Assembly (NCBI GenBank): GCA_030651475.1
Contig: JAUSEW010000021.1
Coordinates: 1,898 to 65,897, forward strand
Direction: 5' to 3'
Origin: Candidatus Levyibacteriota bacterium
Lineage (GTDB): Bacteria; Patescibacteriota; Microgenomatia; Levybacterales; UBA12049
Length of the DNA: 64,000 bases
Positions within the stretch are counted from its first letter, which is position 1; each line of letters starts with the position of its first letter. Shown here piece by piece: positions 187-49,203 of the stretch. The notes beneath the pieces were generated by a model. The model was given only the letters and a program-made list of their open reading frames with translations. It made no database searches and was not told the origin of the DNA. The translations under genes were made by a program, and so were the position numbers.

Positions 187-1908
187 ATGAGAAAAACTGC
201 CCTCTTATTTTTTGCTTTCTTTTTATTTCTCACTTTTCATTTCTCATCTCTCATTTCTCCAACATTTGCTCAAACCAAAGCTTCTCCTAGCGCAAATGTT
301 GAAGAAAATGTTCCCAATAATCTTCACAATTGGACGCAAACTGTGATGATTGAGGTAATGAGCGCACTAACCTGCCAGCTTGCGGGTGTTGACCCAATAA
401 ATTCCAAACAATCCTGTCTTGGAATTGATCAAGCAAGCGGAAAAATTGGATTTTTACCATCTCCTCAAACGGGAGGAGCAATTGGCTTTATGGGCAATAT
501 GATCGCAACACTTTATACACCTCCTCTTCATACCGGTGACTATTTCCGAGATCTTGCTTCAAACTTTGGCATAAACAAAAAGGCATACGCGGAAAGCGCG
601 GGAACGGGATTTCAGGGACTTACTCCTCTTATTGGTATTTGGTCTGCTTTTAGAAATATTGTCTATCTTTTCTTAGTAATAGTTTTTGTGGTTATCGGAC
701 TTGCTATCATGCTTAGAGTCAAAATTGATCCGCGGACTGTAATGACGATCCAAAACCAAATTCCCAAAATTATAATAGGAATACTTGTCGTTACTTTCTC
801 CTTCGCCATCGCAGGATTTTTAATTGATTTGATGTGGGTATCTATTTATTTGATATTCGGAATCTTCAGCGGAATTCCAGGTGTAGATGTTGGCAATCTT
901 AATCCTGCTGCTATTCAAGGACAAAACGCCTTACAAGCTGTAGGATTTGATGTTTTTAAAATAACCAGCGATGCATCTGGAGGAATAAAAGACATGATTG
1001 GATCTTTTCTTGGAATTCAAGCTGGTCCAGGATTTATCTTCAATCCCCTTGCCATTATTTGGGACATTGGAGACCCAAAACGCACTGGTAATATCATTAA
1101 CTGGCTTATTGACGGCATCAGTTCTAGCGCTGGTATTGCAGCATTCCTTAATGTAGCTAAGATCCCAATCGTTAACTCTGCAATTCCCGGAATACAAGAA
1201 ATTTTTGGAATTGGTCAAACTGCAGCAAAAACAGCTGTTGGATCCGCATTCTCTCTAAGCGTATTCTCAGGCACAGAGTTTTTGCTTAGAACTGGACTAC
1301 CATGGATTCTTGCATTCTTAATAATTTTTATCGCACTTCTGACTGCTTTATTCAGACTTTGGCTTGCACTAATTATGGCTTATGTTCATATTTTGATTGA
1401 TGTTGTTCTGGCGCCTTTTTGGATTATCGGCGGCATCGTCCCGGGAAGTCCGATTAGTCTTAGCGGATGGATACGGGATCTCGTTGCAAATTTAGCTGCA
1501 TTTCCTGCAGTAATCGGAATGTTTATGCTGGGAAAAGTGTTTATGGAAGCTTTTGGAAAATGTCCGGCAACAAACCCAAATTGTACAGCAGACAATTTTG
1601 TCCCTCCTCTTATAGGAAATCCCGGAGATCCAAGCCTAATTGGATCCCTAATTGGTCTTGGTATTATTCTAATGACTCCAAATGTCGTAAATATGCTGAA
1701 AGCCGCTCTCAAAGCACCAAAGATTGACACTGGCGGAATCGGCAAGGCATTTATGCCAGGCTTGGCTGTACCTGGACGGACAGTTGGCGGAATAGCAGGA
1801 CTCGCATTAGGTACAGCATACGAAAAAGGAGCTCTTGAGAAAGGGTTACCAGCAGGAGAAAGAGCACCTCTTGGAAAATTCCTTAGATCATTTGGATTTA
1901 TGAGATAA
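187..1908 (+). CDS. Polytopic membrane protein, TrbL/VirB6-like (T4SS inner-membrane component) candidate
   Basis: N-terminal signal peptide (MRKTALLFFAFFLFLTFHFSSLISPTFAQ). A ~130-aa soluble segment is followed by at least six hydrophobic helices and a Gly-rich C-terminus. It sits in the T4SS-like cluster with VirB4 and pilins. The family assignment is inference from topology and context. Confidence 0.5.
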   Translation: MRKTALLFFAFFLFLTFHFSSLISPTFAQTKASPSANVEENVPNNLHNWTQTVMIEVMSALTCQLAGVDPINSKQSCLGIDQASGKIGFLPSPQTGGAIGFMGNMIATLYTPPLHTGDYFRDLASNFGINKKAYAESAGTGFQGLTPLIGIWSAFRNIVYLFLVIVFVVIGLAIMLRVKIDPRTVMTIQNQIPKIIIGILVVTFSFAIAGFLIDLMWVSIYLIFGIFSGIPGVDVGNLNPAAIQGQNALQAVGFDVFKITSDASGGIKDMIGSFLGIQAGPGFIFNPLAIIWDIGDPKRTGNIINWLIDGISSSAGIAAFLNVAKIPIVNSAIPGIQEIFGIGQTAAKTAVGSAFSLSVFSGTEFLLRTGLPWILAFLIIFIALLTALFRLWLALIMAYVHILIDVVLAPFWIIGGIVPGSPISLSGWIRDLVANLAAFPAVIGMFMLGKVFMEAFGKCPATNPNCTADNFVPPLIGNPGDPSLIGSLIGLGIILMTPNVVNMLKAALKAPKIDTGGIGKAFMPGLAVPGRTVGGIAGLALGTAYEKGALEKGLPAGERAPLGKFLRSFGFMR

Positions 1909-1914
1909 AATAAT

Positions 1915-4900: not shown

Positions 4901-5172
4901 ACATACTCCTCCTCAAAAGTAGGAGTTTTCCCTTTATTTGCTTCTTCCCAAGCTTTTCTAGCCACAGTTTGTCTTTCCGCAGAAACAGGTTTTTTCATGC
5001 CTGATCTTGAAGCTTGAGGGGCTTCGAAATTTGTTGGTTGTGAATTAGGAGGCGTATCGGATTTTCCTTCCATAAAAATCTTTCCATCCTTAGAATACCC
5101 TTCTCGTGCTTGTGTTGTCAACTCACGAGTTGATGCTGAGTTTTGTCGAAGCATCAAATCAAATTCTTTCAT
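1915..5172 (-). CDS. Large (1085 aa) charged/coiled-coil-rich hypothetical protein with a C-terminal hydrophobic tail anchor
   Basis: Long uninterrupted ORF, rich in K/E/D/R, with no N-terminal signal peptide. The last ~25 residues form a hydrophobic segment (FRLLLYLLLSAIGETYMI). It lies in an apparent operon with the AAA ATPase upstream. I recognise no motif. Confidence 0.55.
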   Translation of the reverse strand: MKEFDLMLRQNSASTRELTTQAREGYSKDGKIFMEGKSDTPPNSQPTNFEAPQASRSGMKKPVSAERQTVARKAWEEANKGKTPTFEEEYVKREMIKRGLGPIMGGADAPGAEESPAPPVSPAGAEDAADKAVISDPAIVAEMEAMNNALDVGVQPSLNVFLDALNSISKLVGVNPAEKQIAIARIKKRLIEEKEIGERAQAKFQGKQDITYRFGLSLMKEEMDALMTTPMEWLNGQFDHVYALAEEGQELSSPLIQNTQNKISYAIDLINASNPEHLKSFIAESTVRLHLLQMRTAIGYKDLEQVKGAAGQLRAHGLLLGMALEQGKVGAMFNRFQDLLEGTRLWSNKRHHVMLEDALKVQKALIEEQLELAKNGKGGFDDLSNIAKKPEYQADFISATRDEEMTDLKIKRDEKTIGEALAGKLTDVERAEANKKLERLGRIKRIKKVNGDITRIVRTAYDVFVSSQRMGVIVSRGKYLLKDGGRYRSDPIGPLNVYNMEELLFGKFDMYSPEQEEFVDRIKLDIAETYLKEQKKIQGESGKELTRQQKIDLGKRLFRDLFAVPDFFSSGWRIEGVIQALEQRFEASTFQGKPYKELLNKEELKEYQQLKSDQGRKIFLAKKRAEDFALFMRLRLSGQDQLSLKDEKGNDKTRKTREGIWGKIKNYRPEEIIRLFRERKGDRVKALYDEMVGIDPELNLTVTEKEANRPESEDGGRGRDLTVYDKFKIKYGSIIGLLRQEGFDLKDGKGNQTPTQINLSDLTTEQKKMVDSIKGNGSGEMLAKLSKKMQEYIFNKKLVDDLLVDNEFADIYTRSIIIDDILLDKLEDEKFDSVDELGVSKLGYVPLSKMIGEAGAGGDTLARSWNDTGNAATAGNSLLEFIRDEDIEKKTGAAIKFATSAGSYNGLGARGQAECLRYTIGTFLNLSKVDMVWDIIGTTSLGRVSISDVQRIFGPQAKAMSRDELRGHLDHLRGYLSSSISKVREDMREKTKAFLESDLSEEYMEEAKKYSSEDDFKKYKIKEWGEELEKDEKKSHKFYNDLEDLLEVNAGDTAKRFGFRLLLYLLLSAIGETYMIGKSSFKDSK

Positions 5173-5266
5173 ACGCCCGCAGTTTACCCCTTAAACATCA
5201 ATAAATCTTGACATTTCAACCTGACATTTACTAGACAGCAGAAATTAAGCAATAGGAGACTGAATT

Positions 5267-6427
5267 CTAGATGAAGTCAAAGAAATTTTCCGTAGTAATG
5301 AGTTTTACCTTTGTGCTATATTGTTTCGTAAAAGAGACCGCTCCCCGGCTGATGCGGCCGTCTGAATATTTAAACTCGTACGCGGCAAGTTTTTGACTTG
5401 GAAGGGCTTCTATGTAATCTACCTCTGCCCCGCCGTAACTTCTCCAGAAATATAAAGAAACAGGTTTTGCCTGATTTGCAAACTTTTTCATGCGTTCTAT
5501 GAAAAGGAAGTTTTCCCATAAAAAACCGACATCTCTGCGAATTGCGACAGGATTAAAATCTCCGATAAGAGCATTTCGTATACCAAGATCGGAAAAATAT
5601 ATTTTATAGTTTCTTCCTATTTCACGTCTTGGATTTTTAGAAAATGGATGCACGCGAACTATAACGAACGCTTTTTCAAGAATATCTAAATACGATACGA
5701 CTGTTTTTCTGTCAATTTTAAGCCGTGTTGCCAGCTCGTTTTCATTTACTTCCGATCCTACTTGGTAGGCAAGAGCTTTTGCGAGATCCTTTACCGCTTG
5801 TGAGTTTCTAATTCTTTGAAACGATAGAATATCTGCAAACAGGTAGCTTTCTACAATTTTCCTAAGCATAAGCTCTTTGTTCTCGGGATGATTCTCTAAA
5901 TAAATCTCGGGATAAAATCCATACAAAAGGGTTTGCGGCAAGAGAGACTGAGCATATTCTTTCTGTAAAATTTTATTTTGGGAATTCGCTGAATAAGACA
6001 AGACTTCACTAAAAGAAAGAGGAAAAAGAGTAAAGTCAATATATCTTCCCGTTAGGGCATCACTCATTTTATTTTTTAACTCAAAACTCGATGAGCCCGT
6101 AACGATAATCGTATTGTTTGGAAAATTGTCGTAGAGTATCTTGAGGGTTAGACCCGGATTCTCAAGTCTTTGCGCTTCGTCAATTAGAAGAGCTTGAGTG
6201 TTTTTCAAAAGTTTTTCAAGTAAAACTTTGGATGTGGTATTCACAGCGTTTCTCTCCTCATCACTGTCGCAATTAAGATAAAGAGTTTTCTTGCCCGATT
6301 CGGCTAATTTCTGCTGTATCTTTTTTATAATGGTTGTTTTGCCTACTTGCCGCGCACCAAGTATAAGAATAATTTTCTTAAGTTCCAGGCTCTTTAAAAT
6401 AGCTTCTTCCATTAATCTTGGGATCAT
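5267..6427 (-). CDS. AAA+ ATPase (COG1373 / DUF4143-type)
   Basis: Walker A ILGARQVGKTTI near the N-terminus, Walker B-like LLIDEAQRL and a ~390-aa length typical of this archaeal-type ATPase family. Confidence 0.75.
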   Translation of the reverse strand: MIPRLMEEAILKSLELKKIILILGARQVGKTTIIKKIQQKLAESGKKTLYLNCDSDEERNAVNTTSKVLLEKLLKNTQALLIDEAQRLENPGLTLKILYDNFPNNTIIVTGSSSFELKNKMSDALTGRYIDFTLFPLSFSEVLSYSANSQNKILQKEYAQSLLPQTLLYGFYPEIYLENHPENKELMLRKIVESYLFADILSFQRIRNSQAVKDLAKALAYQVGSEVNENELATRLKIDRKTVVSYLDILEKAFVIVRVHPFSKNPRREIGRNYKIYFSDLGIRNALIGDFNPVAIRRDVGFLWENFLFIERMKKFANQAKPVSLYFWRSYGGAEVDYIEALPSQKLAAYEFKYSDGRISRGAVSFTKQYSTKVKLITTENFFDFI

Positions 6428-6523
6428 GTTCCTATTATTAGCACTAATTTAGGAATTTGTCAAGTGCTAGTAAACAAATACCGTATACTTGCAAAAATTC
6501 CCAAAACTGTCTACGATTGAAGA

Positions 6524-7768
6524 GTGAGAAAGGTAATATTTTTATTTTCAAGCCTACTTATTTCCTTCTTATTCTTCGTATCGTGGAATAATAAAGCTTA
6601 TGCGGAGAATTGCCCTCTAAGTATTGATCGAACAACGCCATTCCCTCTTGATTTTAATGAGGACATAGTAATTAAAGGTAATTGTTTCACTAGCGGAAAA
6701 ACATACACTATCTTAGGATATCCTTCAAAGATAGACCCTTCTCCTGGAGAGTATTTTAAGTACTCCATAGATACAAGACAATATTCAGATCCAAATAGTA
6801 TTACCGCACGACTCAATCTGACAAAACCTACCTTTTACCCAATAGGTAGCCTTAATCCTGGACCGTGGATTATAAAAGTCTGCACTCAAGATGTTCTTCC
6901 CCAATGTGGAGAAACAGGTAGAATCGTAGGGACTATTAATATTAACGTTTCTGCAGTTTCTGCAGTTTCTGCACCTACTCCAACACCAATTCCATCGAAT
7001 TTACCAAAAGTTGCTATGTTTCCTTCACGATGTAAGTATCAATCTGATGAATCTTTAGAATTGACGCTCTCTGATCTTTTACCTAAAACTACATATCGTT
7101 GGTGGTGGTGGCAACCAGGAATCTTTCAAGGAGGAGATATAGCCGCAAGAGCATTTACTACATATCAACAGAACGGAACAGTGGCAAAAGCAACGATAGA
7201 AGGGAAAGAAACGCAACCAACTGGTAGCCGCACGCTTTGTGTTGATGTTGAAGGATTTGGCGTTGCTCGTTGTATTCCTGGTTCACAAAATTCAGCAACG
7301 CTACAATTTACGTTTGGTCCGCCGCCAGTTGATGGTTCTGCTTGTGTCACAACAGCAGCAGGAGGACAAGTTCCGCAGAATATACCTACTCCAACGCCCA
7401 TCATCCCAACACCTATATGCGCGAAGGGTGCCATAACTCCCATAAAAGAATCTGTAAATTCAACAAATGTTATTGGCTATACTTGTTCTGCCGTAGATAC
7501 TGGACTTGGCATTGATATCAAAACTAATCCCGAAGATTTGGTGAAGAGTGTTTTTGGAATAATTTTAAGCCTTTCCGGCGGAATTGCTTTAATTCTAATT
7601 ATTATTTCCGGCTATCAACTTATCTTTTCCCAGGGAAATCCCGAACAGGTTAAAGCAGCCCAAGAACAGCTGACTTCCGCAGTTGTCGGGCTTTTGTTTA
7701 TAATATTCTCATTGGTAATTCTACAAATAATCGGAGCAGACATTTTGAAAATCCCAGGCTTTAAGTGA
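6524..7768 (+). CDS. Secreted protein with C-terminal VirB2/TrbC-like pilin domain (pilin-ectodomain fusion)
   Basis: GTG start and a signal peptide. A ~330-aa Cys-containing N-terminal domain carries PTPTPIP linkers and a W-rich patch. The C-terminal ~70 aa (GIILSLSGGIALILIIISGYQLIFSQGNPEQVKAAQEQLTSAVVGLLFIIFSLVILQII) aligns with the four downstream pilin paralogs. Confidence 0.6.
   Translation: MRKVIFLFSSLLISFLFFVSWNNKAYAENCPLSIDRTTPFPLDFNEDIVIKGNCFTSGKTYTILGYPSKIDPSPGEYFKYSIDTRQYSDPNSITARLNLTKPTFYPIGSLNPGPWIIKVCTQDVLPQCGETGRIVGTININVSAVSAVSAPTPTPIPSNLPKVAMFPSRCKYQSDESLELTLSDLLPKTTYRWWWWQPGIFQGGDIAARAFTTYQQNGTVAKATIEGKETQPTGSRTLCVDVEGFGVARCIPGSQNSATLQFTFGPPPVDGSACVTTAAGGQVPQNIPTPTPIIPTPICAKGAITPIKESVNSTNVIGYTCSAVDTGLGIDIKTNPEDLVKSVFGIILSLSGGIALILIIISGYQLIFSQGNPEQVKAAQEQLTSAVVGLLFIIFSLVILQIIGADILKIPGFK
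6947..6973 (+). repeat. In-frame tandem repeat (GTTTCTGCA)x3 encoding VSAVSAVSA inside ORF 6524-7768
   Basis: Three exact 9-bp units seen directly. Confidence 0.9.
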
Positions 7769-33766: not shown

Positions 33767-36127
33767 TTAAAAGCCGAGGTGGAAGATGGTTTGGAAGAAG
33801 GGGGTAAAGGTTATTACAGCCTGAATAACTAAAGTTATAGCAACTCCTATTATAAGAAATTTATTAACTTTAAACATTAATTTTCCCCGAATCAAGAAAG
33901 CAAGAATCATATGGGAAACAACAAGGAGATTGAATACAATTGTTCTGGCTAGGGTTTCAGAAAAAATTCCCAAAAACAATTTAAAAACAGCCAGTAAAAT
34001 AAAGGCTAAAGAAAGTCCTGTAATTAAAATAAAGGCAAGGCGGTGGTTGCTTAAGATTGGCGCATTTGGATTTCTGGGCTTAAGCCTTAATACTTCATGA
34101 TCTTTATTGTCGTTGGCAAGGGCCATGGCCGGTAAGCCATCCGTGACTAGGTTTATCCAAAGAATTTGCGTTGGGAGAAGCGGGTTTGGCATGCCAAAAA
34201 GCACAGCAAAAAATATGAGCGCAATCTCTGAAAGATTGCCTGTGATAAGATAGGTTGTAGCTTTGGCAATGTTATTGTAAATTGTTCTTCCTTCCTCAAT
34301 AGCTCCAACCAGTGTTGAGAAATTGTCATCGGTTAAAACAATATCGCTTGCTTCTTTGGCAACATCAGTGCCTTTTTCGCCCATTGCTATACCAACATCG
34401 GCTTTTTTAAGCGCTAATGCATCATTTACTCCGTCTCCCGTAACTCCCACCACATAGCCCAGTTTTTTTAGAACCGTTACTAAACGAAGCTTGTCTTCGG
34501 GTTTATTTCTGGCGAAAATACGGGTTTTTAAAATGATTTTTTCCAGTTCTTCGTCCGAAAGTTTTTCAACCTCATCTCCTGTTATAACATCTTCGTCTTT
34601 GTCAACCAAACCAACTTCTTTTGCCACCGCAAGAGCGGTTAATTCATTATCTCCGGTTATCATGATGGTTTTAATTCCCGCCAGTTTTGCTTTCTCAACT
34701 GCTATTTTTGCTTCCGGACGCGGCGGATCATACATACCGATAAAGCCCAGAAATTTAAGATTTTTTTCTAAGTGCTCTCTTTTTGGATTACTATGGCTTT
34801 CTGTTTTTGTGCCAAATCCGATAATGCGCAATCCCTGTTTCGCATAGTCTTCAAAAAGATTGGTGATGCGTTTTTTTTCATCTTCCGTAAGCTTGCTTTC
34901 CGCAAGGATAATTTCCGGAGCGCCCCTCACAAACACATATTTTTTGTAGTTTTGTTCAAAAACCGTAGTTACTGTTTTTCTGTCCGGATCAAAAGAGAAT
35001 TCATCAATTACTTTCCCTTCATTTTTTATTTTTTCAATATCTCCCAGCTTTTCTTTCGCAAAAAGAAGCAATGCTCCGTCTGTTTTTCCTCCCACTACGT
35101 CAAAGGAGTTTTTATCAGCCTTTTGGATTAAGGATGCAGTATTTCCCAAAATACACGTCTTAAGAAGAGAAGGCAATGATTCCTTATCTTTTAACCAGAT
35201 TTTTTTTACTCTTTGATTATTTTGCGTTAGAGTTCCTGTTTTATCAACTAGAAGTATCTGTATGGCTCCTAGTGTTTCAACAGAGGCCATTTTCCTAACA
35301 ATTGCGCGCTTTTTTGCCATTCTTACCATTCCAATAGCCAGAGCGATAATTACAACTATAGGAAGACTCGTCGGAACTGCAGCAATACCAATGCTGATTG
35401 CTAGAATTGTCATCGAGAATAATTCTTTTCTTTGCAAAAGACCGATTGTAATAATAGAAATGGAAATGGCAATTACTATAAAGGTTAGTGTTTTTCCTAA
35501 GCCATCAAGACGTTTTTGAAGAGGAGTTTTTTCTGATGTCAGAGTGGATAATGTTTGTGCAATTTTTCCAAAACGGGTCTGCATGCCTGTATTTTCAACA
35601 AGCATGCGCCCGCGGCCGCTTATAAGAAGAGTTCCTAAAAAAACCTCTTCATTTTTATTCTTAACAACAGGGATAGATTCTCCGGTTAAAACAGATTCGT
35701 CGATTTCAATCGAGCTGCCTAAAATAATCTTGCCATCGGCTGGAATACGGATACCTGGGGAAAGACGTACCACGTCTCCCGGAACTAAGTCTGTCGTTTG
35801 AACTTCGATATCCTTATCGTTTCTGATAACGCGAGCTAATGGTTTTATATAGTCTTTTAGCTTCTGTAATGATTTTTCCGCCTTATATTCCTGCACAAAG
35901 CTAACAACAGAGTTCATTATAATAACAGTCATTATGAATACGCTGTCAATGTAATTGCCTATGGCAAAAGAGAGAATAGAAGCCCCTGTGAGGATTGCGT
36001 TAAAAAGGGTTGGGAATTGGGAGAAAAAAAGAGAGATGGGCGCGAGCCTTTCCTCTTTTGAAATCTCATTCTTGCCAAAGGTATTGAGTCTTCTTTGTGC
36101 TTCTTGTGATGTTAAACCTTTTTCCAT
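33767..36127 (-). CDS. P-type cation-transporting ATPase (P2-type, Ca2+/Mg2+-like)
   Basis: DKTGTLT phosphorylation motif, TGDN, GDGVNDA hinge motif and 8-10 TM helices. The track ORF extends to 36178. The internal start MEKGLTSQEAQ (36127) avoids overlap with comM. Confidence 0.88.
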   Translation of the reverse strand: MEKGLTSQEAQRRLNTFGKNEISKEERLAPISLFFSQFPTLFNAILTGASILSFAIGNYIDSVFIMTVIIMNSVVSFVQEYKAEKSLQKLKDYIKPLARVIRNDKDIEVQTTDLVPGDVVRLSPGIRIPADGKIILGSSIEIDESVLTGESIPVVKNKNEEVFLGTLLISGRGRMLVENTGMQTRFGKIAQTLSTLTSEKTPLQKRLDGLGKTLTFIVIAISISIITIGLLQRKELFSMTILAISIGIAAVPTSLPIVVIIALAIGMVRMAKKRAIVRKMASVETLGAIQILLVDKTGTLTQNNQRVKKIWLKDKESLPSLLKTCILGNTASLIQKADKNSFDVVGGKTDGALLLFAKEKLGDIEKIKNEGKVIDEFSFDPDRKTVTTVFEQNYKKYVFVRGAPEIILAESKLTEDEKKRITNLFEDYAKQGLRIIGFGTKTESHSNPKREHLEKNLKFLGFIGMYDPPRPEAKIAVEKAKLAGIKTIMITGDNELTALAVAKEVGLVDKDEDVITGDEVEKLSDEELEKIILKTRIFARNKPEDKLRLVTVLKKLGYVVGVTGDGVNDALALKKADVGIAMGEKGTDVAKEASDIVLTDDNFSTLVGAIEEGRTIYNNIAKATTYLITGNLSEIALIFFAVLFGMPNPLLPTQILWINLVTDGLPAMALANDNKDHEVLRLKPRNPNAPILSNHRLAFILITGLSLAFILLAVFKLFLGIFSETLARTIVFNLLVVSHMILAFLIRGKLMFKVNKFLIIGVAITLVIQAVITFTPFFQTIFHLGF

Positions 36128-36131
36128 ATTT

Positions 36132-37664
36132 TTAAATATTATCAGCCCTTGGCCTGTATTGCAAAGCTTCGGCAACATGATTTGGCGCTATATTTTTACA
36201 CTCTTCCAAATCGGCAATAGTTCTGGCAAGTTTTACAGTTCTGTAATAAGATCTTGCCGATAAACTCATTCTGACAACCGCCAGACGCAGAAGTTCCCGG
36301 CATTCATTGGAAAGTTCCAAAAGTTCTTTCACGTCCTTACTGATCATTTCGGAATTTGAGGCTATTTTTCTTCCTTTGAAGCGTTTGGTTTGGATATCTC
36401 TGGCTTTCTGTACTCTTTTTCTAATCTGCAAAGAATTTTCCGCAAGTCTTCCCTTATCATCTTCGGTTAATTTATCAAGTTTTACCGCAGGAACATCCAA
36501 GTGAATATCAATTCTGTCAATCACAGGGCCGGAAACACGTTTTTGATAACGCAGTATTTGTCCGGGCATGCATTTACATTCGTGAGTCGGATCGCCGAAG
36601 TAGCCGCAGGGACAGGGATTTTGCGCAGCGACAAGCATAAATTTGGCAGGAAACATCACCCGTCCTTGGGCTCTGGAAATAGTGACAAATCCATCTTCCA
36701 TGGGCTGACGTAAAACTTCCAAAACGTGCCTTGGAAATTCTGCAAATTCATCCAAAAACAAAACTCCTCGATGCGCCAAAGATATTTCCCCTGGTTTTGG
36801 CACTGTTCCTCCGCCGATAATTCCGATATGGGAAGTTGTATGATGAGGAGCCCTAAATGGCCTTTGAGTGATGATAGATTCTCTGTCCAAAAGTCCGGAA
36901 ATGCTGTAAATTTTGGTTACTTCCAAGGCTTCGTCGAAAGTTAGTTTTGGCAAAATTGAAGGAAGAGTTCTGGCAAGCAAAGTTTTTCCTGCTCCCGGCG
37001 GGCCTTTGAGAAGTATATTGTGGTTTCCTGCTGCTGCAATTTCCATAGCTCTTTTGGCTTTTTCCTGACCTTTAATATCTTCCATATCGAAATCAAATTT
37101 TTCGGTTTTGGCGTATTCCGCAAGCGGAATATGCTTTTGAGGTTTTATTTCCTTAACTTTTGTTAAATGCTGAAAAAGTTCCAATAATGTTGAAGTAGGA
37201 TAGATTTTAATTCCTTGTAATACTGCCGCTTCTTTGGCATTAACCAAAGGCAGAAAAATTCTTTTTAATTTTTCTTCTTTTGCGAGAATTGCTTGCGGCA
37301 AAACGCCGTTGGTATAGCGCAGTCTTCCATCCAAAGACAGCTCTCCCATAAAAAGCGCATCATCAATGTCTTCTTTTAATTGTCCGGAGGCGATAAGAAT
37401 TCCCAGGGCAATCGGCAGATCATAGGAAGGTCCTTCTTTGGGCAAGTCCGCAGGAGCCAAATTTACCGTAATTCTTTTGGACGGAAAATCGCTTCCTGTA
37501 TTTTTAATAGCACTTCTGACTCTTTCTTTTGATTCTTCCACTGCCTTATCCGGAAGACCGACAATGGTAAAAGAGGGAAGGCCTTGAGAAGCAATATCAA
37601 TTTCCACTTCAACAGGAACCGCATTAAGACCAACAACAGCTGAAGAATTCACTTTCGCCAACAT
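36132..37664 (-). CDS. comM: Mg-chelatase-like AAA ATPase YifB/ComM
   Basis: N-terminal Lon-like domain, Walker A LLKGPPGAGKTLLA, Walker B VLFLDEFAEF and a C-terminal Mg-chelatase subunit ChlI-like region. Confidence 0.85.
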   Translation of the reverse strand: MLAKVNSSAVVGLNAVPVEVEIDIASQGLPSFTIVGLPDKAVEESKERVRSAIKNTGSDFPSKRITVNLAPADLPKEGPSYDLPIALGILIASGQLKEDIDDALFMGELSLDGRLRYTNGVLPQAILAKEEKLKRIFLPLVNAKEAAVLQGIKIYPTSTLLELFQHLTKVKEIKPQKHIPLAEYAKTEKFDFDMEDIKGQEKAKRAMEIAAAGNHNILLKGPPGAGKTLLARTLPSILPKLTFDEALEVTKIYSISGLLDRESIITQRPFRAPHHTTSHIGIIGGGTVPKPGEISLAHRGVLFLDEFAEFPRHVLEVLRQPMEDGFVTISRAQGRVMFPAKFMLVAAQNPCPCGYFGDPTHECKCMPGQILRYQKRVSGPVIDRIDIHLDVPAVKLDKLTEDDKGRLAENSLQIRKRVQKARDIQTKRFKGRKIASNSEMISKDVKELLELSNECRELLRLAVVRMSLSARSYYRTVKLARTIADLEECKNIAPNHVAEALQYRPRADNI

Positions 37665-37668
37665 TAAT
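37613..37668. repeat. Direct repeat copy 1 (~56 bp; covers comM start codon and first 17 codons)
   Basis: caggaaccGCATTAAGACCAACAACAGCTGAAGAATTCACTTTCGCCAACATTAAT. The 48-bp core (37621-37668) is identical to 38887-38934. Confidence 0.9.
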
Positions 37669-37800
37669 TAATAATAGCATTATTATAAAATTAAAACTGC
37701 GCAACAAAACCGGCACTTGACCCATTCGGCTTGGCTCAGGCCGTTCGAGGCTCTGAGGAGCCCTCAGGCTCTGAACGAGGTCTTGACAAATCGTCTCAAA

Positions 37801-38874
37801 ATGATACGATTAGTATATATGAATGATTCGATTCTAACCCCAAGACAAAAATATATTCTGAATTTAATTAGCCAATCAGAGGGGCTGTTGCGTGAGCAAA
37901 TCCAAAATGAAATTCAAGAAATCTACCCTTCTTCAAAACCAACCTTGGTGAGGGACCTAAACATTCTTTTAAAATACGGTTTTATTAAATTCGAAGGTAA
38001 GGCAAGAGCGACAAAATATTTGCCTAAAGTATTAAACCGACTTCTTCGTAAGTTTGACACTGAAAGATATTTTGCCGATGATCCGGATAAACGTATAGGA
38101 GCAAGAAAAACTTTCGACTTTAAAATACTTGAAGACTTGCATGATCTTTTTTTGCAAGACGAAATGGAAGTTCTCAAGAAAATATGTCGCAGTTTTAAAC
38201 AGCAAACATCTAAGTTAAATCCGGATCTTTTAAAACGGGAGCTTGAAAGATTTGCGATTGAATTGTCATGGAAATCTTCAAAAATTGAAGGTAATACATA
38301 CACTCTTTTAGAGACAGAATCTTTAATTAAAGAGCAAAAGGAGGCTGTTGGAAAAACCAAAGAAGAAGCAATAATGATATTAAATCATAAAATTGCTTTT
38401 GAAGAAATATTGAAAAATAAAGATGATTTTAGTGTTATTTCTATTACGCAAATTAACCAATTGCATAATATTTTAATTAAAGACTTAAATGTTACAAGCG
38501 GCATTAGGAAGCAGGCGGTTGGGATTACGGGCACAGCATATCAGCCGTTAGATAATGAACACCAAATAAGAGAAGTTTTTGAAAAAACAATAAGTATTAT
38601 AAATAGAACTAAAAACCCATTTGAAAAAGCGTTAATCGCTCAATTTATGATTGCGTACATTCAGCCATATTCTGATGGTAACAAGAGAACAGCAAGAATG
38701 TTTACAAATGCAATTTTATTAGCCCATGACCTATACCCTTTATCTTATCGGAGCGTAGATGAAGATAGTTTTAAAAAAGGTTTAATTCTATTCTACGAGC
38801 AAAGCAGCATCTGTGAAATAAAACAGTTATTTATTGAACAAGTCATATTTGCCAATGAAACATATTTTAGATAA
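37801..38874 (+). CDS. Fic-family protein (variant Fic motif), carried on an inserted segment
   Basis: Fic motif QPYSDGNKRTARMF (HxFx(D/E)GNGR variant with Q/Y). The track ORF starts at 37717, but the extension overlaps a GC-rich structured leader. The probable start is ATG 37801 or 37819. Confidence 0.7.
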   Translation: MIRLVYMNDSILTPRQKYILNLISQSEGLLREQIQNEIQEIYPSSKPTLVRDLNILLKYGFIKFEGKARATKYLPKVLNRLLRKFDTERYFADDPDKRIGARKTFDFKILEDLHDLFLQDEMEVLKKICRSFKQQTSKLNPDLLKRELERFAIELSWKSSKIEGNTYTLLETESLIKEQKEAVGKTKEEAIMILNHKIAFEEILKNKDDFSVISITQINQLHNILIKDLNVTSGIRKQAVGITGTAYQPLDNEHQIREVFEKTISIINRTKNPFEKALIAQFMIAYIQPYSDGNKRTARMFTNAILLAHDLYPLSYRSVDEDSFKKGLILFYEQSSICEIKQLFIEQVIFANETYFR

Positions 38875-38877
38875 CTG

Positions 38878-38934
38878 CAGGGAACTGCATTAAGACCAAC
38901 AACAGCTGAAGAATTCACTTTCGCCAACATTAAT
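38878..38934. repeat. Direct repeat copy 2 (~57 bp; duplicate of the comM 5' end, immediately after the Fic stop codon)
   Basis: cagggaactGCATTAAGACCAACAACAGCTGAAGAATTCACTTTCGCCAACATTAAT. One indel and one mismatch at the 5' edge, then 48/48 identical to copy 1. Confidence 0.9.
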
Positions 38935-39011
38935 CTATGATATCATTTTTTCTCTAATGAAAATATTTTGTAATTTGTAATTCCTGATTTTATTTCTTAT
39001 AATCCTTCTAT

Positions 39012-39479
39012 ATGCAACAAGCGCTACAGGTAAAAATTAGATTTTATAAAAACAGCGATTATGATAAGGTGAAAAAGCTGTATATAGAGGGCGGAATATA
39101 TTACGAAGGTACGGATTCCTACGGAAATATCAAAAGAAAAATTTCAAGAGATCCAAAATCCATTTTCGTGGCAATTGAAGGAAAGGAAATTGCCGGAACA
39201 GTTTCGATAACTGAAGATGGGAGAATGACGCTTATCTCAAGGCTTGCGGTTTCTTGGAAATTTAGAGATAGGGGAATTGGTAAAGCTTTGATGAAGAAAG
39301 CCGAAGAAGAATTGTCTGCCAGAGGATGTGATAAATTCAATATTTTAGTCAGAGAGGAAAATAAAAATTTGCAAAAATATTATGAGAAGCAAAGCTATGA
39401 AAAAGGCAATATCTATAGATGGATGGAAAAAAAAGAAAAAATAGCCTCTAGAATAGAAATTAATGAAGCTGTACGGTAA
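39012..39479 (+). CDS. GNAT-family N-acetyltransferase
   Basis: 155 aa with acetyl-CoA binding motif RDRGIGKALMKKAEEEL (R/Q-x-x-G-x-G/A). Confidence 0.7.
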   Translation: MQQALQVKIRFYKNSDYDKVKKLYIEGGIYYEGTDSYGNIKRKISRDPKSIFVAIEGKEIAGTVSITEDGRMTLISRLAVSWKFRDRGIGKALMKKAEEELSARGCDKFNILVREENKNLQKYYEKQSYEKGNIYRWMEKKEKIASRIEINEAVR

Positions 39480-46409: not shown

Positions 46410-47408
46410 ATGGCAAACTTAAATTTTCTGACCGGATTTAATTGGGTAGACGGAATAATTCTTGTTGTAGTTCTAGTTTATATTATTCAAGGATTATCTT
46501 TGGGTTTTCTGCAATCAATAATAGATTTTTCTGGCTTTGTTTTTTCATTCATTGCCGGACTTAAGTTCTATGGATTAATTTCTGCTCTTTTAACCAAATT
46601 TATTGCCATGCCTTCGGGTTTTAGCAAGGCTTTAGGTTTTTTAATCGCAGCCATCATTAGTGAAATAATTATAAGTTTTATTTTAAAAACAATAATTAAT
46701 GTAGCGTTTAGTAATCCTTCCAAAGTGCCGGAATTTATAAAGAAAACAAACAGCGTTTTGGGAATAATTCCCTCAGTTGCATCGGTACTTGTGCTTTTGT
46801 CTTTTATTCTCTCCTTGATCATATCTTTTCCCTTCTCGCCATTTCTTAAAAATTCCGTTTCCTCTTCAAAAATAGGCAGTGTTCTTGTGCAAAAAACCCA
46901 AGGATTTGAAAGCGATATTCAAAAGGTTTTTGGCGGCGCATTGAACGAGACGCTGAATTTCTTAACTGTTGAACCGCAAGATAATTCAATTGTTAAGCTT
47001 CAATTCCAAACAAATAATTTGAAAACAGACGAAGTTTCGGAGCGCAAAATGATTGCAATGGTAAATCAAGAAAGAGTTTCAAGAGGGCTGCCTTCTTTGG
47101 ATTTGGATACAAATCTTAGAGATGCTGGACGAAATCATTGTACGGATATGTTCCAACGAGGATATTTTTCTCACTATACGCCTGAAGGATTATCTCCGTT
47201 TGACAGAATGGCGAAATTTGACATCTCTTTTACTTATGCAGGAGAAAATTTAGCTTTTTCCCCAAGCGTAGAGCTGGCAATGCAGGGACTGATGCAAAGC
47301 CCCGGACACAAAGCTAATATTCTTTCTCCGAATTTTGGTAAGATTGGAATTGGAGTAATCGACGGCGGAATTTACGGCGAAATGTTCTGTCAGGAGTTTA
47401 CGGATTAA
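46410..47408 (+). CDS. CvpA-like membrane domain fused to a CAP/SCP (YkwD-like) domain
   Basis: The N-terminal four TM helices begin MANLNFLTGFNWVDGIILVV (CvpA-like). The C-terminal ...HCTDMFQRGYFSHYTPEG...GENLAF...GHKANIL carries CAP-domain signatures. Confidence 0.6.
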   Translation: MANLNFLTGFNWVDGIILVVVLVYIIQGLSLGFLQSIIDFSGFVFSFIAGLKFYGLISALLTKFIAMPSGFSKALGFLIAAIISEIIISFILKTIINVAFSNPSKVPEFIKKTNSVLGIIPSVASVLVLLSFILSLIISFPFSPFLKNSVSSSKIGSVLVQKTQGFESDIQKVFGGALNETLNFLTVEPQDNSIVKLQFQTNNLKTDEVSERKMIAMVNQERVSRGLPSLDLDTNLRDAGRNHCTDMFQRGYFSHYTPEGLSPFDRMAKFDISFTYAGENLAFSPSVELAMQGLMQSPGHKANILSPNFGKIGIGVIDGGIYGEMFCQEFTD

Positions 47409-47989
47409 ATCTGCTTATAATCAATTTTCGTAATTAGGGAGTTTTGTTTTTGCAATTTTGAGTTTCTAATTTTTTCTCTATAATGTTTGCCCACAGTAAT
47501 TTTTTTGTAATCCGTGACTTTCTCCATAAATTCAATCCCCATTAGGTGATCATATTCATGCTGAATAACTCTGGCTAAAATTCCATCACATCTTAATTTG
47601 AATTTAATTCCGTTTTCATCAATTGCCTCTACTTCAATTTCTTTGGGCCTAGATACCGGGCCAAATAAATCTCCGTTAACAACACTTCCGCATCCTTCAT
47701 AAATTAGGTTTTTTTGCCGCGATTTATACGTTATTTTTGGATTGATATAAACTCTTAATTTATCTGTTTTGCCCAGTTTTCTTGCTTTTGTATTTCTTGG
47801 GTAAGTTACGAAAATCAGATAGTTTTCGGCTATTTGAGGCGCTGCTATGCCAATTAAACCTGTTTTGTGCATCGTGTCTATTAAGTCTTTACGCAATTTT
47901 TTAAATTTAGGAGAATTTACATTTTCAATTTCTTTATTTTGCTTTTTTAATTTAAGATGACCTGCTTGAATAACTATTTTTACTGCCAT
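47405..47989 (-). CDS. def: Peptide deformylase
   Basis: Motifs GIGIAAPQI, EGCGSV and HEYDHLMG. The track ORF extends to 48067. The internal start MAVKIV (47989) gives a typical ~195-aa PDF. Confidence 0.8.
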   Translation of the reverse strand: MAVKIVIQAGHLKLKKQNKEIENVNSPKFKKLRKDLIDTMHKTGLIGIAAPQIAENYLIFVTYPRNTKARKLGKTDKLRVYINPKITYKSRQKNLIYEGCGSVVNGDLFGPVSRPKEIEVEAIDENGIKFKLRCDGILARVIQHEYDHLMGIEFMEKVTDYKKITVGKHYREKIRNSKLQKQNSLITKIDYKQI

Positions 47990-48039
47990 AGCGAGGGGAA
48001 TTATATCATAAGGATACGCATTTTGTGTATAATAAAAAT

Positions 48040-49203
48040 ATGCAGCTGCCAAATTTAAAAGACGCAAAAATTGAAGGGAAGAGGGTTTTGTTGCGGTTGG
48101 ATTTGGATGTTCCTGTCCAAAATGGCGTGATTAAAGACGATTCAAGATTGAAAGCTGGATTGCCGACTTTGGAATTTCTTTTGAAAAGTGGGGCAAAGGT
48201 AATTATCGCCGGACATTTGGGAAGACCAACTCCGTTGAATAATGAATCAAGAATCAAGAATCCCTTCGACTTCGTTCAGGGCAGGCAAGAATTAAGTTTA
48301 AAACCGGTAGCGCTGTGGTTTGCAAAAAAAATTAGTAACGTCCATAATTCATCATTCATAATTCATAATTCTAACCTCGGCGGGTTTGATGGGCGGAAAT
48401 TAACGAAAAATCTTTTTCTTCTGGAAAATTTAAGATTTTATAAAGGCGAAGAGGAAAATCCTTCGACAAATTCAGGACAAGTTTTTGCAAAAAAGTTAGC
48501 GGCTCTTGCGGATATTTATGTTAATGACGCATTCGCAGTTTCCCATAGAAATAATGCGTCAATCGTTGGGGTGACCAAATTTTTGCCTCATTTTGCCGGC
48601 TTTCAATTGCAAAAAGAAGTAGAAGTTTTGTCAGGAATTTTAGAAAATCCGAAGCGTCCGCTGGTAGTTATTATTGGAGGTGCAAAATTGGAAACAAAAC
48701 TTCCTTTAGTTGAAAAAATGCACCATATCGCAGATTACGTTTTAGTTGGCGGAAAATTAGCCGGAGATGTAAAAACATTGCTTAAGGTTCAACATGAGAA
48801 AATTAAAGGCAGAAAATCAGTATTGCTGGTTGCGGATTTAAATGAAGAGGGTATAGATATTACGCCAAAAAGTGCAGAAAATTTTTTGCAAATCATAAGT
48901 CTGGCTAAAACAGCGGTATGGAACGGGCCAATGGGAAAAATTTCAGACAGCAAATCAGAAATAATCAAAAGCGAAGAGGGGAGCAAGAAGTTGGCAGAAG
49001 GATTAATAAAAAGCAGTGCTTATACAGTTGTTGGCGGAGGAGATACGGTAGGATTTTTGGATAAAATTTGCCTGTTGGATAATTTTGCCTGTATGCCCAA
49101 AAACAGATGTTTCCTTTCAACAGGCGGAGGAGCCATGCTGGCATTTTTATCCGGTGAAACCCTCCCCGGCATAGAGGCGTTATTAAAAGTTACAGTGCGC
49201 TGA
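48040..49203 (+). CDS. pgk: Phosphoglycerate kinase
   Basis: ...KRVLLRLDLDVPV...AKVIIAGHLGRP...LLENLRF. Probable start MQLPNL at 48040. Confidence 0.9.
   Translation: MQLPNLKDAKIEGKRVLLRLDLDVPVQNGVIKDDSRLKAGLPTLEFLLKSGAKVIIAGHLGRPTPLNNESRIKNPFDFVQGRQELSLKPVALWFAKKISNVHNSSFIIHNSNLGGFDGRKLTKNLFLLENLRFYKGEEENPSTNSGQVFAKKLAALADIYVNDAFAVSHRNNASIVGVTKFLPHFAGFQLQKEVEVLSGILENPKRPLVVIIGGAKLETKLPLVEKMHHIADYVLVGGKLAGDVKTLLKVQHEKIKGRKSVLLVADLNEEGIDITPKSAENFLQIISLAKTAVWNGPMGKISDSKSEIIKSEEGSKKLAEGLIKSSAYTVVGGGDTVGFLDKICLLDNFACMPKNRCFLSTGGGAMLAFLSGETLPGIEALLKVTVR

Follow-up and report, generated by a model that had tools for sequence, protein, structure and literature searches.

How did a single Fic-family gene come to lie between two copies of the 5′ end of comM? 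The window, which is the whole 64,000-nt stretch of Candidatus Levyibacteriota DNA analysed here, holds a 48-nt sequence in two exact copies, at 37621-37668 and 38887-38934. Their starts are 1266 nt apart, as the earlier note had reported, and the Fic gene is the one gene between them. With the near-identical flank described for each copy the repeat grows, without gaps, to 54 nt that differ at a single position (C/T, 37620/38886), and beyond this the copies are about 65% identical over some 16 nt more on the upstream side of the comM ATG. A third copy is absent from the window when up to three mismatches are allowed, and the 48-nt repeat never arises in 100 dinucleotide-preserving shuffles. 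The window has 53 non-overlapping ORFs with a length of 100 aa or more, and direct repeats flank just one of them, the Fic ORF (score 52, runner-up 14).

The insertion in front of comM

The features of the locus are listed in Table 1. One repeat copy is the real start of comM and the other is an orphan behind the Fic gene, both as first proposed. Their coding parts differ at two positions, both synonymous (GCG/GCA and CCT/CCC). A short ORF that starts at the orphan comM start and runs antisense into the 3′ end of the Fic gene is probably not a gene.

Table 1. Features of the comM-Fic-GNAT region, in window coordinates.
Feature	Position	Strand	Basis or remark
comM / yifB, 510 aa, intact	36132..37664	-	5′ end is repeat copy 1
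Direct repeat copy 1	37615..37668		functional comM: 4 nt upstream plus codons 1-17
Insert-side DNA, now upstream of comM	37669..37715		alignments, flank comparison
GC-rich (61%) 66-nt segment plus duplicated CTTGAC (37716-37721, 37782-37787)	37716..37787		window lineage only
Predicted Fic promoter and operator	37783..37811	+	promoter scan, 10 of 12 with TG
Fic-family gene, 351 aa	37819..38874	+	Pfam Fic, E=6.7e-14
45-aa ORF, probably not a gene	38793..38930	-	starts at the orphan comM start
Direct repeat copy 2	38881..38934		orphan comM 5′ fragment; begins 7 nt past the Fic stop
Native upstream region of comM, with the divergent GNAT promoter	38935..39011		insert now separates region from comM
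GNAT acetyltransferase, original divergent comM neighbour	39012..39479	+	Pfam Acetyltransf_1, 4e-16; GNAT|comM adjacency in L086

Comparison loci are given by L numbers. L086, whose ComM is 96% identical, has an empty site in which GNAT and comM adjoin and the repeat is present in a single copy. Its upstream flank matches that beside the orphan in the window, and both of its flanks can be aligned to the sequences outside the two window copies. Because L086 joins GNAT to comM with one copy and an orphan-like flank, the Fic segment is a genuine insertion; the earlier note had suggested an island-like insertion and had asked for just such an empty site. A second relative, L085, also lacks the Fic gene, and its comM has a dS of just 0.17 to that of the filled locus L084. 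The filled site, with the same junctions, occurs in at least five other Levybacteria assemblies (L084, L167, L168, L169 and L176), and the stretch upstream of comM varies between close relatives. A cassette of about 1.2 kb, consisting of one gene with its own promoter and operator, was inserted at the comM 5′ end, either in an ancestor of this Levybacteria genome, which belongs to the candidate phyla radiation (CPR), or in a donor to it. Both sides carry the target, which spans about -25 to +51 of comM. The comM-linked copy keeps that gene intact, and the orphan keeps the former upstream region, which matches the single-copy upstream region of L086 and carries a promoter-like site for GNAT at 38975-39003, together with the GNAT neighbour.

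The product of comM matches Mg_chelatase (7e-95), ChlI (1e-46) and Mg_chelatase_C (4e-28) in Pfam and equals in length its homologues at 95-97% identity. comM is a DNA-uptake gene, and it is kept intact despite the insertion in front of it.

The insert-side DNA now upstream of comM is common to all five of the other filled sites, and its first 25 nt or so are homologous to native comM leaders but diverged from them (AATGCTATTATTA...). The GC-rich segment that follows is missing from L084, L167, L169 and L176, and L168 has another insert at the same point, so it is a small, secondary insertion at the Fic promoter's -35 box. It has no Rfam match, folds no better than shuffled sequences (37690-37800, z=-0.97) and has no other copy in the comparison loci searched for it. 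An Rfam scan of 37400-39200 with E up to 1 returned a chance snoRNA-like match alone (21.6 bits, gathering score 55), and no intrinsic terminators were found around the cassette. The window contains no tRNA or tmRNA gene, and the Fic segment is therefore no tRNA-linked island.

The Fic gene and its product

The Fic ORF scores 52.9 bits against Pfam PF02661 (cut-off 24), which places it in the Fic/DOC superfamily. Its predicted promoter has a -35 box TTGACA (37783-37788), a 16-nt spacer and a TG-extended -10 box TACGAT (37805-37810) ahead of the ATG at 37819, and is overlapped by the imperfect palindrome AATCGTCTCAAAATGATACGATT (37789-37811). This promoter/operator stretch is 100% conserved in L001 and L002 and near-identical in L003, and perfect palindromes occupy the equivalent position in L023 and L019. 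The protein combines a winged-helix part with a class II Fic domain, and its N-terminus has a three-helix, HTH-like region with its helices within residues 8-52. This region probably represses the gene's own promoter at the palindrome, a predicted autoregulation.

The active-site loop is Q282-PYSDGNKRTA-R293 (38662-38697). It includes the non-canonical motif QPYSDGNKR noticed earlier (residues 282-290, 38662-38688), in place of the canonical H-x-F-x-(D/E)-G-N-G-R-x-x-R with its catalytic His; the full reading is Q282-P-Y-S-D-G-N-K289-R-T-A-R. The pattern Q-P-[FY]-x-D-G-N-K-R, including the Gln and the Lys, is kept in 160 of the 161 family proteins examined. A class II inhibitory motif, S153-SKI-E157-G (38275-38295), aligns to T-V-A-I-E-G of FICD, and SSKIEG is found in 109 of 120 close homologues. 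The protein matches FICD with phmmer (1e-10), and its AlphaFold model (pLDDT 85.8) matches FICD in Foldseek (E=1.6e-9, TM 0.52-0.59). The gene has a dN/dS of about 0.08 and is under purifying selection.

Doc, of the phd-doc system, is a Fic-fold kinase with a D-G-N-K-R motif, in which Lys replaces the second Gly, a catalytic His and a Phd antitoxin partner. The window protein shares the Lys of this motif, whereas it has Gln for the His, is three times larger, carries an HTH and an inhibitory helix, and has no partner gene, there being no second ORF within the 1266-nt unit. With FICD/HYPE class II AMPylases and SoFic it shares the Fic fold and the inhibitory (S/T)xxxE(G/N) helix before the core; it differs from them in the Gln for His, the Lys for the second Gly, and a DNA-binding domain that is N-terminal rather than C-terminal. 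SoFic-type Fic proteins are single-gene anti-phage systems (PMC12249575), and the cassette resembles them in being a single-gene unit of patchy distribution. The score against the SoFic equivalog NF046030 of NCBIfam is 20.3 bits, far under the cut-off of 550, and the protein is therefore not a SoFic orthologue. The PADLOC profiles SoFic and PDC-S04 match it at 1.3e-18 and 1e-16, the former over the core only.

These features suggest that the protein is most likely a putative selfish or defence-type Fic enzyme, autoinhibited because the inhibitory Glu is present. Its chemistry is probably other than classical AMPylation, since Gln stands in place of the catalytic His and, as in Doc, Lys in place of the second Gly. 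In viral contigs the relatives found are at most 34% identical, which gives no hint of a phage vehicle.

Related cassettes at other sites

A search for the same cassette elsewhere, as the earlier note had advised, found related cassettes at many sites. Cassettes whose protein is 72-88% identical sit at CvpA|PGK, at PBP|MTHFR and beside copies of a tRNA-Asn end, and more distant ones (44-54% identical) at the ends of pilin, UDP-glucose dehydrogenase and uvrA genes. The flanking duplication is a different one at each of these sites. comM is thus not a specific target of the cassette. The analogy drawn with AbaR islands of Acinetobacter falls away. These are Tn7-like, carry tni genes, interrupt comM and make a 5-bp duplication; the window's element is like them only in having comM as neighbour or target, and differs in that comM is intact, the duplication is at least 54 nt, transposition genes are absent and the cargo is a single Fic ORF.

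Some cassettes are 92-95% identical in nucleotides in unrelated contexts of three lineages. Their identity begins 60-90 nt before the ATG and ends 4-6 nt past the stop, and no conserved termini beyond the promoter were found among the cassettes compared. The mobile unit is therefore recurrently promoter plus ORF alone. With neither an integrase nor any other gene inside the segment, as had been noted, it is a minimal, non-autonomous-looking element; "minimal" was apt in the first description, "decayed" was not. At no locus inspected is a recombinase gene present within or next to the cassette. This promoter-plus-ORF unit moves between lineages and sites without encoding a recombinase.

Flanking duplications are visible at about 13 of about 110 loci (roughly 1 in 8), range from 16 to 240 bp and are mutually unrelated in sequence; about 85% of loci show no flanking repeat. 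The lengths are 88 bp in L023, 41 bp in L019, 34 bp in L031, about 25 bp in L002, 17 bp in L037, 53 bp in L079, 75 bp in L163, 46 bp in L141, 36 bp in L106, 22 bp in L098, 241 bp in L094 and at least 14 bp in L177. Most are the ends of neighbouring genes and leave these neighbours intact. Such repeats flank about 9 of about 48 Fic genes, compared with about 9 of about 330 other ORFs of the same loci. The same signature occurs with other cargo, namely AAA_14-DUF4143 and SoFic-type Fic genes. L008, L009 and L011 are bordered by a copy of the tRNA-Asn 3′ end, to which the three L003 repeats, by contrast, have no significant similarity.

Two candidate duplications were rejected. The flanking repeat of L069 is a second promoter/operator copy, and those of L077 belong to the palindromic repeat elements of a Rickettsiales genome. 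Nor did a rule hold by which the orphan would always lie downstream of the Fic gene, because it lies upstream in L163 and L141.

The two copies as different alleles

Between paired copies, 43 differing codons are synonymous and 12 are non-synonymous (p=4e-15 against the 27% expected). The 14 codons that differ in L023 do so synonymously without exception, and the changes extend to both ends of the repeat, stop codon included; this repeat is 86% identical with a longest identical run of 11 nt. Since the differences are almost only synonymous, paired copies often appear to be different functional alleles and not a decaying fresh duplication. Perfectly identical pairs also exist (48/48 in the window, 22/22 in L098 and 17/17 in L037). 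At comM, the orphan of L084 has window-like alleles from codon 5 on, and its functional copy has L085-like alleles.

Mechanism of insertion

We infer, with a probability of about one half, an integrase-free insertion with long target duplication, for which host recombination via a travelling copy of the gene end would be the most likely route. The cassette would travel with a copy of the target gene end, and host functions would recombine through that copy. Loop-out between the two repeats, which would also yield empty sites, would be followed by uptake into a related cell, where the cassette would loop in at the homologous gene end. Such a route would account for the different functional alleles usually seen in a pair and for the switch of the L084 polymorphisms near the ATG. 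Several points weigh against this reading. About 85% of the loci lack a flanking repeat. Repeats like that of L023 are poor substrates for RecA-type recombination, perfectly identical pairs resemble a fresh staggered-cut duplication, and repeated overwriting of orphans by empty-site strains could also give synonymous-only differences. Circular forms or excision junctions were sought as terminal overlaps of short Logan contigs (1.15-1.33 kb), and none was seen; the contigs of L167-L169 and L176 lack terminal overlap, and the 14-nt terminal direct repeat of the L177 contig fits a flanking repeat, not a circle.

The closest precedent is the insertion with long target duplication reportedly described by Nobusato and colleagues in 2000 for restriction-modification (RM) gene units. 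Furuta et al. (2010) found short RM units, free of integrase and transposase, flanked by variable direct repeats of more than 30 bp that duplicate a single-copy target, which often overlaps a gene end, in hosts that are mostly naturally competent or proficient in DNA uptake (PMC2853133). Judged by their definition, the event type fits: the repeat aligns to a single-copy target in L086, is 54 nt long (>30 bp), bounds a 1.2-kb insert (<20 kb) and encloses no mobility genes. The cargo class does not fit, for there is a Fic gene only in place of R and M. The two kinds of unit share the lack of an integrase, variable repeats derived from a single-copy target, the overlap with gene ends, a selfish or defence-type cargo and hosts that for the most part can take up DNA. 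They differ in the single Fic gene, the many heteroallelic pairs and the inclusion of CPR hosts. The link proposed for RM units, to DNA breaks made by restriction, is inapplicable to such a cargo. A literature search for Fic- or DUF4143-specific insertions with such duplications found none.

A fresh long target-site duplication is a possible alternative, though one to which we give distinctly less weight. Two nicks 16-90 nt apart would be filled in and joined to a linear promoter-plus-Fic fragment, and the copies, identical at first, would later be altered, either of them, by homologous recombination with the alleles of other strains, for instance when empty-site strains overwrite the orphan from its flank. 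Variable repeat lengths without common sequence, and the perfectly identical pairs, are consistent with this, as is the position of the most diverged parts of the orphans in the window, L084 and L167, which adjoin the cassette, as expected if the orphan is refreshed from the outer flank inwards. It also resembles the picture for RM genes, for which Furuta et al. suggest double-strand breakage (PMC2853133). However, synonymous-only differences that reach both ends of the L023 repeat are hard to obtain from patches ending inside the homology, and a Fic protein is not known to supply staggered breaks.

Site-specific integration through a recombinase of the tyrosine or serine type, acting in trans, is unlikely. 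Here the cassette would be an att-flanked remnant or satellite like a CIME, and the repeats would be the attL and attR that the earlier note saw in them. CIMEs are flanked by att sites, lack recombination genes and share the att site of a cognate ICE/IME integrase (ICEberg 2.0, PMC6323972; PMC5704250). The likeness extends to attL/attR-like direct repeats with no integrase between them, to possible movement in trans, and to the tRNA-Asn 3′-end copies bordering some Fic cassettes, a classical integrase target. The repeats overlap gene ends and reconstitute the gene, the junction positions are constant across six comM-site genomes, and the allele switch of L084 near the ATG resembles a defined crossover. 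A CIME, however, has the att site of its cognate integrase, whereas closely related Fic cassettes use unrelated repeats of 16-240 bp without a shared core, one repeat being common to the comM-site clade only. Such varied sequences and lengths argue against one dedicated integrase, no cognate integrase or neighbouring recombinase gene was found at the loci inspected, and AAA_14-DUF4143 and SoFic-type Fic cargo show the same signature.

An ancestral arrangement, with one old event at comM, no current mobility, and empty sites made by secondary deletion between the repeats, is improbable. The window, L084, L167-L169 and L176 have homologous junctions on both sides and a homologous insert-side comM leader, and the Fic genes have diverged as much as comM or more. 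Between the window and L084 the junctions are shared despite a Fic dS of 0.97, so an old, single, vertically inherited insertion is possible for the comM clade. Against this, the orphans have decayed too little for neutral DNA of such an age, those of the window and L084 differing at 1 of the first 42 nt against a comM dS of 0.46. In addition, filled L084 and empty L085 are closely related, near-identical cassettes occur in unrelated contexts elsewhere, and L001 and L002, from other sites, fall among the comM-site copies in the Fic tree, which is poorly resolved.

Still less probable is a Fic protein that is itself the mobility enzyme, its HTH binding the cassette end and its Q/NKR site acting on DNA or on one of the host's factors for recombination or repair. 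It is the sole gene inside the mobile unit, its unusual active-site motif is invariant across phyla, and a DNA-binding domain is paired with a palindrome at the left end of the cassette. Yet the protein lacks the catalytic His, the same flanking signature accompanies unrelated single genes, the cassette termini are not conserved beyond the promoter, and we know of no precedent. A mis-joined or duplicated repeat in this metagenome-assembled genome is barely credible even with a repeat length (54) near common k-mer sizes, since the same architecture with diverged copies recurs in six or more independent assemblies, which stem from different samples and were made with different assemblers, and the two window copies differ at one position and in their flanks.

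Implications

Integrase-free mobility with long duplications has so far been described mainly for restriction-modification genes. If the pattern seen here holds, insertion with long target duplication is not confined to RM genes but mobilises further selfish or defence modules of a single gene, and this mode of insertion therefore cannot rest on restriction cuts. A large, cross-phylum and uncharacterised Fic subfamily with an invariant Gln and Lys and an HTH would then behave as a mobile gene. Heteroallelic repeats would provide a handle on the mechanism, namely the host-derived and the donor-derived arm of each repeat.

Candidate cargoes for mobility by gene-end mimicry are the Q-x-NKR Fic family, AAA_14-DUF4143 (PDC-S01) and SoFic-type Fic. 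Only tentatively do we extend the idea to a general, homology-programmed mobility in the CPR and beyond, in which one-gene candidates for toxins or defence systems may spread as cassettes that lack a recombinase and carry a mimic of a host gene end, which guides integration and is resampled in each cycle of excision and integration. If true, this would extend the RM-only precedent to a mobility independent of DNA cleavage by the cargo. CPR genomes, which have few classical mobile elements, would, if the pattern holds, gain and lose genes at gene boundaries without an integrase and with their neighbours intact.

The Fic cassette at comM

The Fic gene of the window lies between two direct repeats, one of which is the functional 5' end of comM (Table). 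Copy 1 consists of 4 nt of upstream sequence and codons 1-17 of comM; the window ComM is full length, equal to its 95-97% identical homologues. Copy 2 starts 7 nt past the Fic stop codon and opens an ORF of merely 45 aa, which agrees with its description in an earlier note as an orphan duplicate of the comM 5' end. The same note reported no integrase, and indeed the Fic ORF is the only one between the repeats. At its inner end the repeat differs at two nucleotides between the copies; read in the comM frame, both changes are synonymous. No third copy of the 48-nt repeat occurs in the window at ≤3 mismatches, and none was seen in 100 shuffles. The Fic ORF is alone among the 53 non-overlapping ORFs ≥100 aa of the window in having flanking direct repeats. 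The window belongs to a Candidatus Levybacteria MAG, and the Fic protein is identical to an NCBI entry from a 112-kb contig.

The 3' end of comM shares 47 nt (36132-36178) with the annotated start of the next ORF downstream, a P-type ATPase (33767-36178, minus strand), and the relative L086 has the same overlap. Directly upstream of the Fic -35 box, a 66-nt segment of 61% GC lies between two CTTGAC copies (37716-37721 and 37782-37787). It is missing from L084, L167, L169 and L176; in L168, another insert, ~50 nt long, occupies exactly this point. The segment (37716-37787) has no Rfam match and no significant fold.

Features of the window and of related loci (L numbers denote relatives' loci or metagenome contigs)
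Locus	Set	Feature	Coordinates	Strand	Length	Remarks
Window		comM/YifB ORF	36132-37664	-	510 aa	Pfam Mg_chelatase, ChlI, Mg_chelatase_C
Window		Fic ORF	37819-38874	+	351 aa	Pfam Fic; sole ORF between repeats
Window		Exact repeat	37621-37668, 38887-38934		48 nt	Two copies
Window		Extended repeat	37615-37668, 38881-38934		54 nt	One mismatch; spacing 1266 nt
Window/L084	First	Repeat			54-69 bp	comM 5' end
L023	First	Repeat			88 bp	Last 30 codons and stop of pilin-like gene
L019	First	Repeat			41 bp	Last 12 codons of UDP-glucose dehydrogenase-like gene, including ATGA overlap with next gene's start
L031	First	Repeat			34 bp	Intergenic
L002	First	Repeat			~25 bp	
L037	First	Repeat			17 bp	
L079	First	Repeat			53 bp	Intergenic
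L163	Independent metagenome	Repeat			75 bp	uvrA 5' end; orphan upstream of Fic
L141	Independent metagenome	Repeat			46 bp	
L106	Independent metagenome	Repeat			36 bp	
L098	Independent metagenome	Repeat			22 bp	
L094	Independent metagenome	Repeat			241 bp	Two paralogous small genes
L177		Repeat	1-14, 1151-1164		≥14 bp	1164-bp contig
L003		Near-identical cassette	5700-7400			
L009		Near-identical cassette	3700-5400			
L008		Near-identical cassette	3296-4996			
L003		tRNA-Asn gene	2683-2757			
L009		tRNA-Asn gene	1149-1221			
L010		AAA_14-DUF4143 gene	1207-2373			Repeat-flanked
L033		AAA_14-DUF4143 gene	744-2087			Repeat-flanked; also in L032
L066		SoFic-type Fic gene	2613-3797			Fic_N+Fic+SoFic_C; repeat-flanked
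L026		ORF	5674-6210			No Pfam match; repeat-flanked
L054		ORF	6780-7313			No Pfam match; repeat-flanked
L011		ORF	3154-3798		214 aa	No Pfam match; repeat-flanked

Empty and filled sites

The contexts of the closest ComM homologues were fetched for comparison with the window. The site is empty in L086 (ComM 96% identical), where the GNAT-comM gap measures 81 nt and holds a single repeat copy and no Fic gene; this bears out the reading of the segment as an insertion. The 80 nt upstream in L086 align with the flank of window copy 2 and fail to match what at present precedes comM in the window. L085 (ComM 97% identical) also has no Fic gene and has a different neighbour. The site is filled in L084 (ComM 97% identical), whose Fic, 86% identical, has comM on one side and an orphan comM 5' fragment on the other; its repeat has 69 nt, 86% identity and a spacing of 1183 nt, and the window and L084 inserts are homologous end to end. 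The same two junctions are present in four further short contigs from other samples (L167, L168, L169 and L176). The comM dS between one empty-site genome and a filled one is only 0.17. Of the two outcomes the earlier note had set against each other, an ancestral syntenic arrangement and empty sites in relatives, empty sites were found, and the arrangement is also syntenic in several relatives. Recurrence of the arrangement in independent assemblies, whose repeat copies have diverged, excludes an assembly artefact.

Gene content upstream of comM varies locally. Between comM and the amidohydrolase the window carries Fic, GNAT, an HTH gene and an ORF of unassigned function; in L084 the region holds Fic together with a methyltransferase/Mrr-like gene and a Bro-N gene; in L085 the amidohydrolase is the immediate upstream neighbour. 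In L084 (1961-3800) the position taken by GNAT in the window is occupied by an HTH gene, the methyltransferase/Mrr-like (NA-iREase) gene and the Bro-N gene, which begin 23 nt upstream of the ATG of the orphan comM copy. This boundary has thus received several different insertions. The proposed analogy with AbaR islands at a comM hotspot fails, because AbaR islands rely on another machinery, break up comM and leave a 5-bp duplication; here comM is intact, and cassettes are also found at other sites. The reading of the cassette as the remnant of a decayed larger island is likewise unsupported, since the unit is recurrently minimal.

Mobility and promoter of the cassette

In close relatives the cassette is found at CvpA/CAP-PGK (L001), PBP-MTHFR (L002) and with an amidase and a second Fic gene as neighbours (L003). 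Conservation among these loci is limited to the promoter, the ORF and roughly 10 nt past the stop codon. The clearest case is that of L003 (labelled Microgenomates), L009 (labelled Daviesbacteria) and L008 (labelled Levybacteria), whose cassettes are 92-95% identical in nucleotide sequence and have unrelated flanks; identity begins 60-90 nt before the ATG and ends 4-6 nt after the TAA. This suggests that the cassette was recently transferred across distant CPR lineages. L001 and L002 group with the comM-site copies in the Fic tree, although this tree is star-like. No close Fic relatives were found on viral contigs. Judged by these sequence comparisons, the cassette is mobile and not comM-specific.

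At the CvpA/CAP-PGK junction, L001 and L002 bear the Fic cassette and the window bears a peptide deformylase gene on the opposite strand (47405-48067). The sequence TAATTAGGGAGTTTTGTTTTT, single in the window, is duplicated around Fic in L002, so for that insertion the window represents an empty site, or one filled differently (window 47412-47450; L001 5860-6000; L002 5911-5937 and 7074-7100).

The Fic promoter is near consensus (TTGACA-16-TG-TACGAT), and an imperfect palindrome, AATCGTCTCAAAATGATACGATT, overlaps it. L001 and L002 share this stretch at 100% identity and L003 has it in near-identical form, even though the proteins are just 72-88% identical. The palindrome is perfect in L023 and L019, and other members have different palindromes at the same place. 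Autoregulation by the HTH of the protein at the palindrome would be a natural inference; the candidate HTH-binding operator is AATCGTCTCAnnnTGAGACGATT. In L069 an exact 29-nt copy of the promoter/operator, TTGACTATTCGTAACAAAAATGTTACGTA, is found just downstream of Fic (3928-3956 and 5052-5080), and could belong to a tandem cassette or a second regulated gene.

Flanking duplications at other loci

For all usable loci, the 450 nt upstream of the Fic ORF were aligned with the 450 nt downstream. Significant direct repeats are found close to the ORF (Table): upstream copies lie 45-140 nt from the ATG, and downstream copies -2 to 40 nt past the stop codon. Apparent repeats in L069 and L077 were rejected as something other than target duplications, which leaves about 13 of ~110 Fic loci flanked by repeats. 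As a control, all ORFs ≥150 aa in the first locus set were compared: repeats flank ~9 of ~48 Fic genes and only ~9 of ~330 other ORFs. No sequence is common to the repeats, and beyond promoter and stop codon the cassette termini are not conserved.

Several of the other repeat-flanked genes are themselves single-gene defence candidates, among them the SoFic-type Fic of L066. The single AAA_14-DUF4143 genes of L010 and L033 (PADLOC PDC-S01, E=1e-102) have direct repeats of 49 bp at ~86% identity and 233 bp, the same signature as that of the Fic cassettes. The single ORFs of L066, L026, L054 and L011, with repeats of 26-63 bp, may be further one-gene cassettes of this kind.

The L177 contig is made up of one Fic cassette with the 14-nt CCGACTTTTTCTCC at both ends; either it is circular, or the contig breaks off within a further flanking duplication. 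The 3' end of tRNA-Asn with its downstream flank (GGGAGCCAAGTGGCACTTAAT) is copied at the left borders of the L008 (~3500-3555) and L009 (~3927-3947) cassettes, and the repeats around the L011 ORF (3080-3140 and 3820-3880) are copies of the same region. This suggests that arrays of small cassettes accumulated downstream of tRNA-Asn. In L011, a tRNA-Asn-like gene (2820-2850 and 3058-3100), not called by ARAGORN, seems to be interrupted close to its anticodon loop by ~207 nt, which may be an intron or an insertion.

Heteroallelic repeat copies

Nine repeat pairs overlap coding sequence; together they contain 43 synonymous and 12 non-synonymous codon differences (p=4e-15 versus 27%). All 14 codon changes are synonymous in L023, including AGT to TCC (Ser to Ser), as are 8/9 in L169 and 7/8 in L163, which also has an in-frame codon indel. 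Only the L106 orphan, with a nonsense codon, is clearly decayed. The copies are thus usually different functional alleles. A neutral relic as old as its functional twin would change at all codon positions, so the orphans either are recent copies of functional genes that came from diverged lineages or are refreshed by recombination. The L084 orphan has window-like synonymous alleles from codon 5 on, and its functional comM has those of the close empty relative L085; this switch looks like a crossover near the ATG. The window repeat is identical at 48/48 positions from -4 to +44 and only ~65% identical further upstream, a sharp boundary that points to recombination, not uniform drift.

Mechanism of insertion

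An integrase-free one-gene cassette is polymorphic for presence at a single-copy target. Long duplications of unrelated targets recur and keep the neighbouring genes intact, the repeat copies are heteroallelic, and a bare promoter-ORF unit moves horizontally. By analogy, these events would be "insertion with long target duplication", as described for restriction-modification units. Those insertions have repeats of 46-423 bp, lack mobility genes and occur mostly in competent hosts, and a link to DNA breakage by the cargo has been suggested (Furuta et al. 2010, PMC2853133).

The favoured route is that a gene-end copy travels with the cassette and that host recombination functions act through it: the cassette would loop out between the repeats and loop in at the homologous gene end in a related cell. 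This would account for the heteroallelic copies, the L084 allele switch, the empty sites, and the fact that the comM clade keeps constant junctions even though its Fic genes have diverged. Confidence in this specific route is moderate because diverged repeats, such as those of L023, are poor RecA substrates. No circular cassette forms were found among the short contigs checked. The main rival is duplication by staggered breaks at insertion, with orphans later refreshed by recombination from empty-site strains. A further rival is a CIME-like recombinase acting in trans, at which the tRNA-Asn-end borders of L008, L009 and L011 hint. That the Fic protein itself drives insertion is unlikely, because unrelated cargo genes have the same repeat signature.

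The Fic protein

The structure model (pLDDT 85.8) has three N-terminal helices (residues 8-18, 25-35 and 40-52), and its best structural matches are FICD/HYPE, BT_2513 and SoFic. The N-terminus has winged-helix character in some homologues (Pfam PF03965 matches). A class II inhibitory motif, S153-S-K-I-E157-G-N, is present. The core loop reads Q282-P-Y-S-D-G-N-K-R-T-A-R, versus H-P-F-I-D-G-N-G-R-T-S-R in FICD, which confirms the non-canonical motif first noticed in the window: Gln replaces the catalytic His and Lys the second Gly in 160/161 family proteins encoded in the fetched loci. The D-G-N-K-R part is like that of Doc, but Doc keeps the His. Loci of the family span CPR groups, Alphaproteobacteria, Verrucomicrobia and Bacteroidota. 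The Fic gene is under strong purifying selection (dN/dS ~0.08). Together with the invariance of the motif, this argues that Q/K is a conserved trait of a distinct uncharacterised subfamily, not decay. NCBIfam profiles gave only sub-threshold matches to the protein, PADLOC profiles matched the core (SoFic, 1e-18; candidate PDC-S04, 1e-16), and the PHROGs matches have no assigned function.

Significance

The feature in the window is real and well delimited. It is an instance of a kind of gene mobility that is known but has received little study, here carrying an uncharacterised, widespread Fic subfamily. Its chief interest is that the pattern extends to many loci and several types of cargo, and that it offers a testable handle on an integrase-free insertion mechanism.
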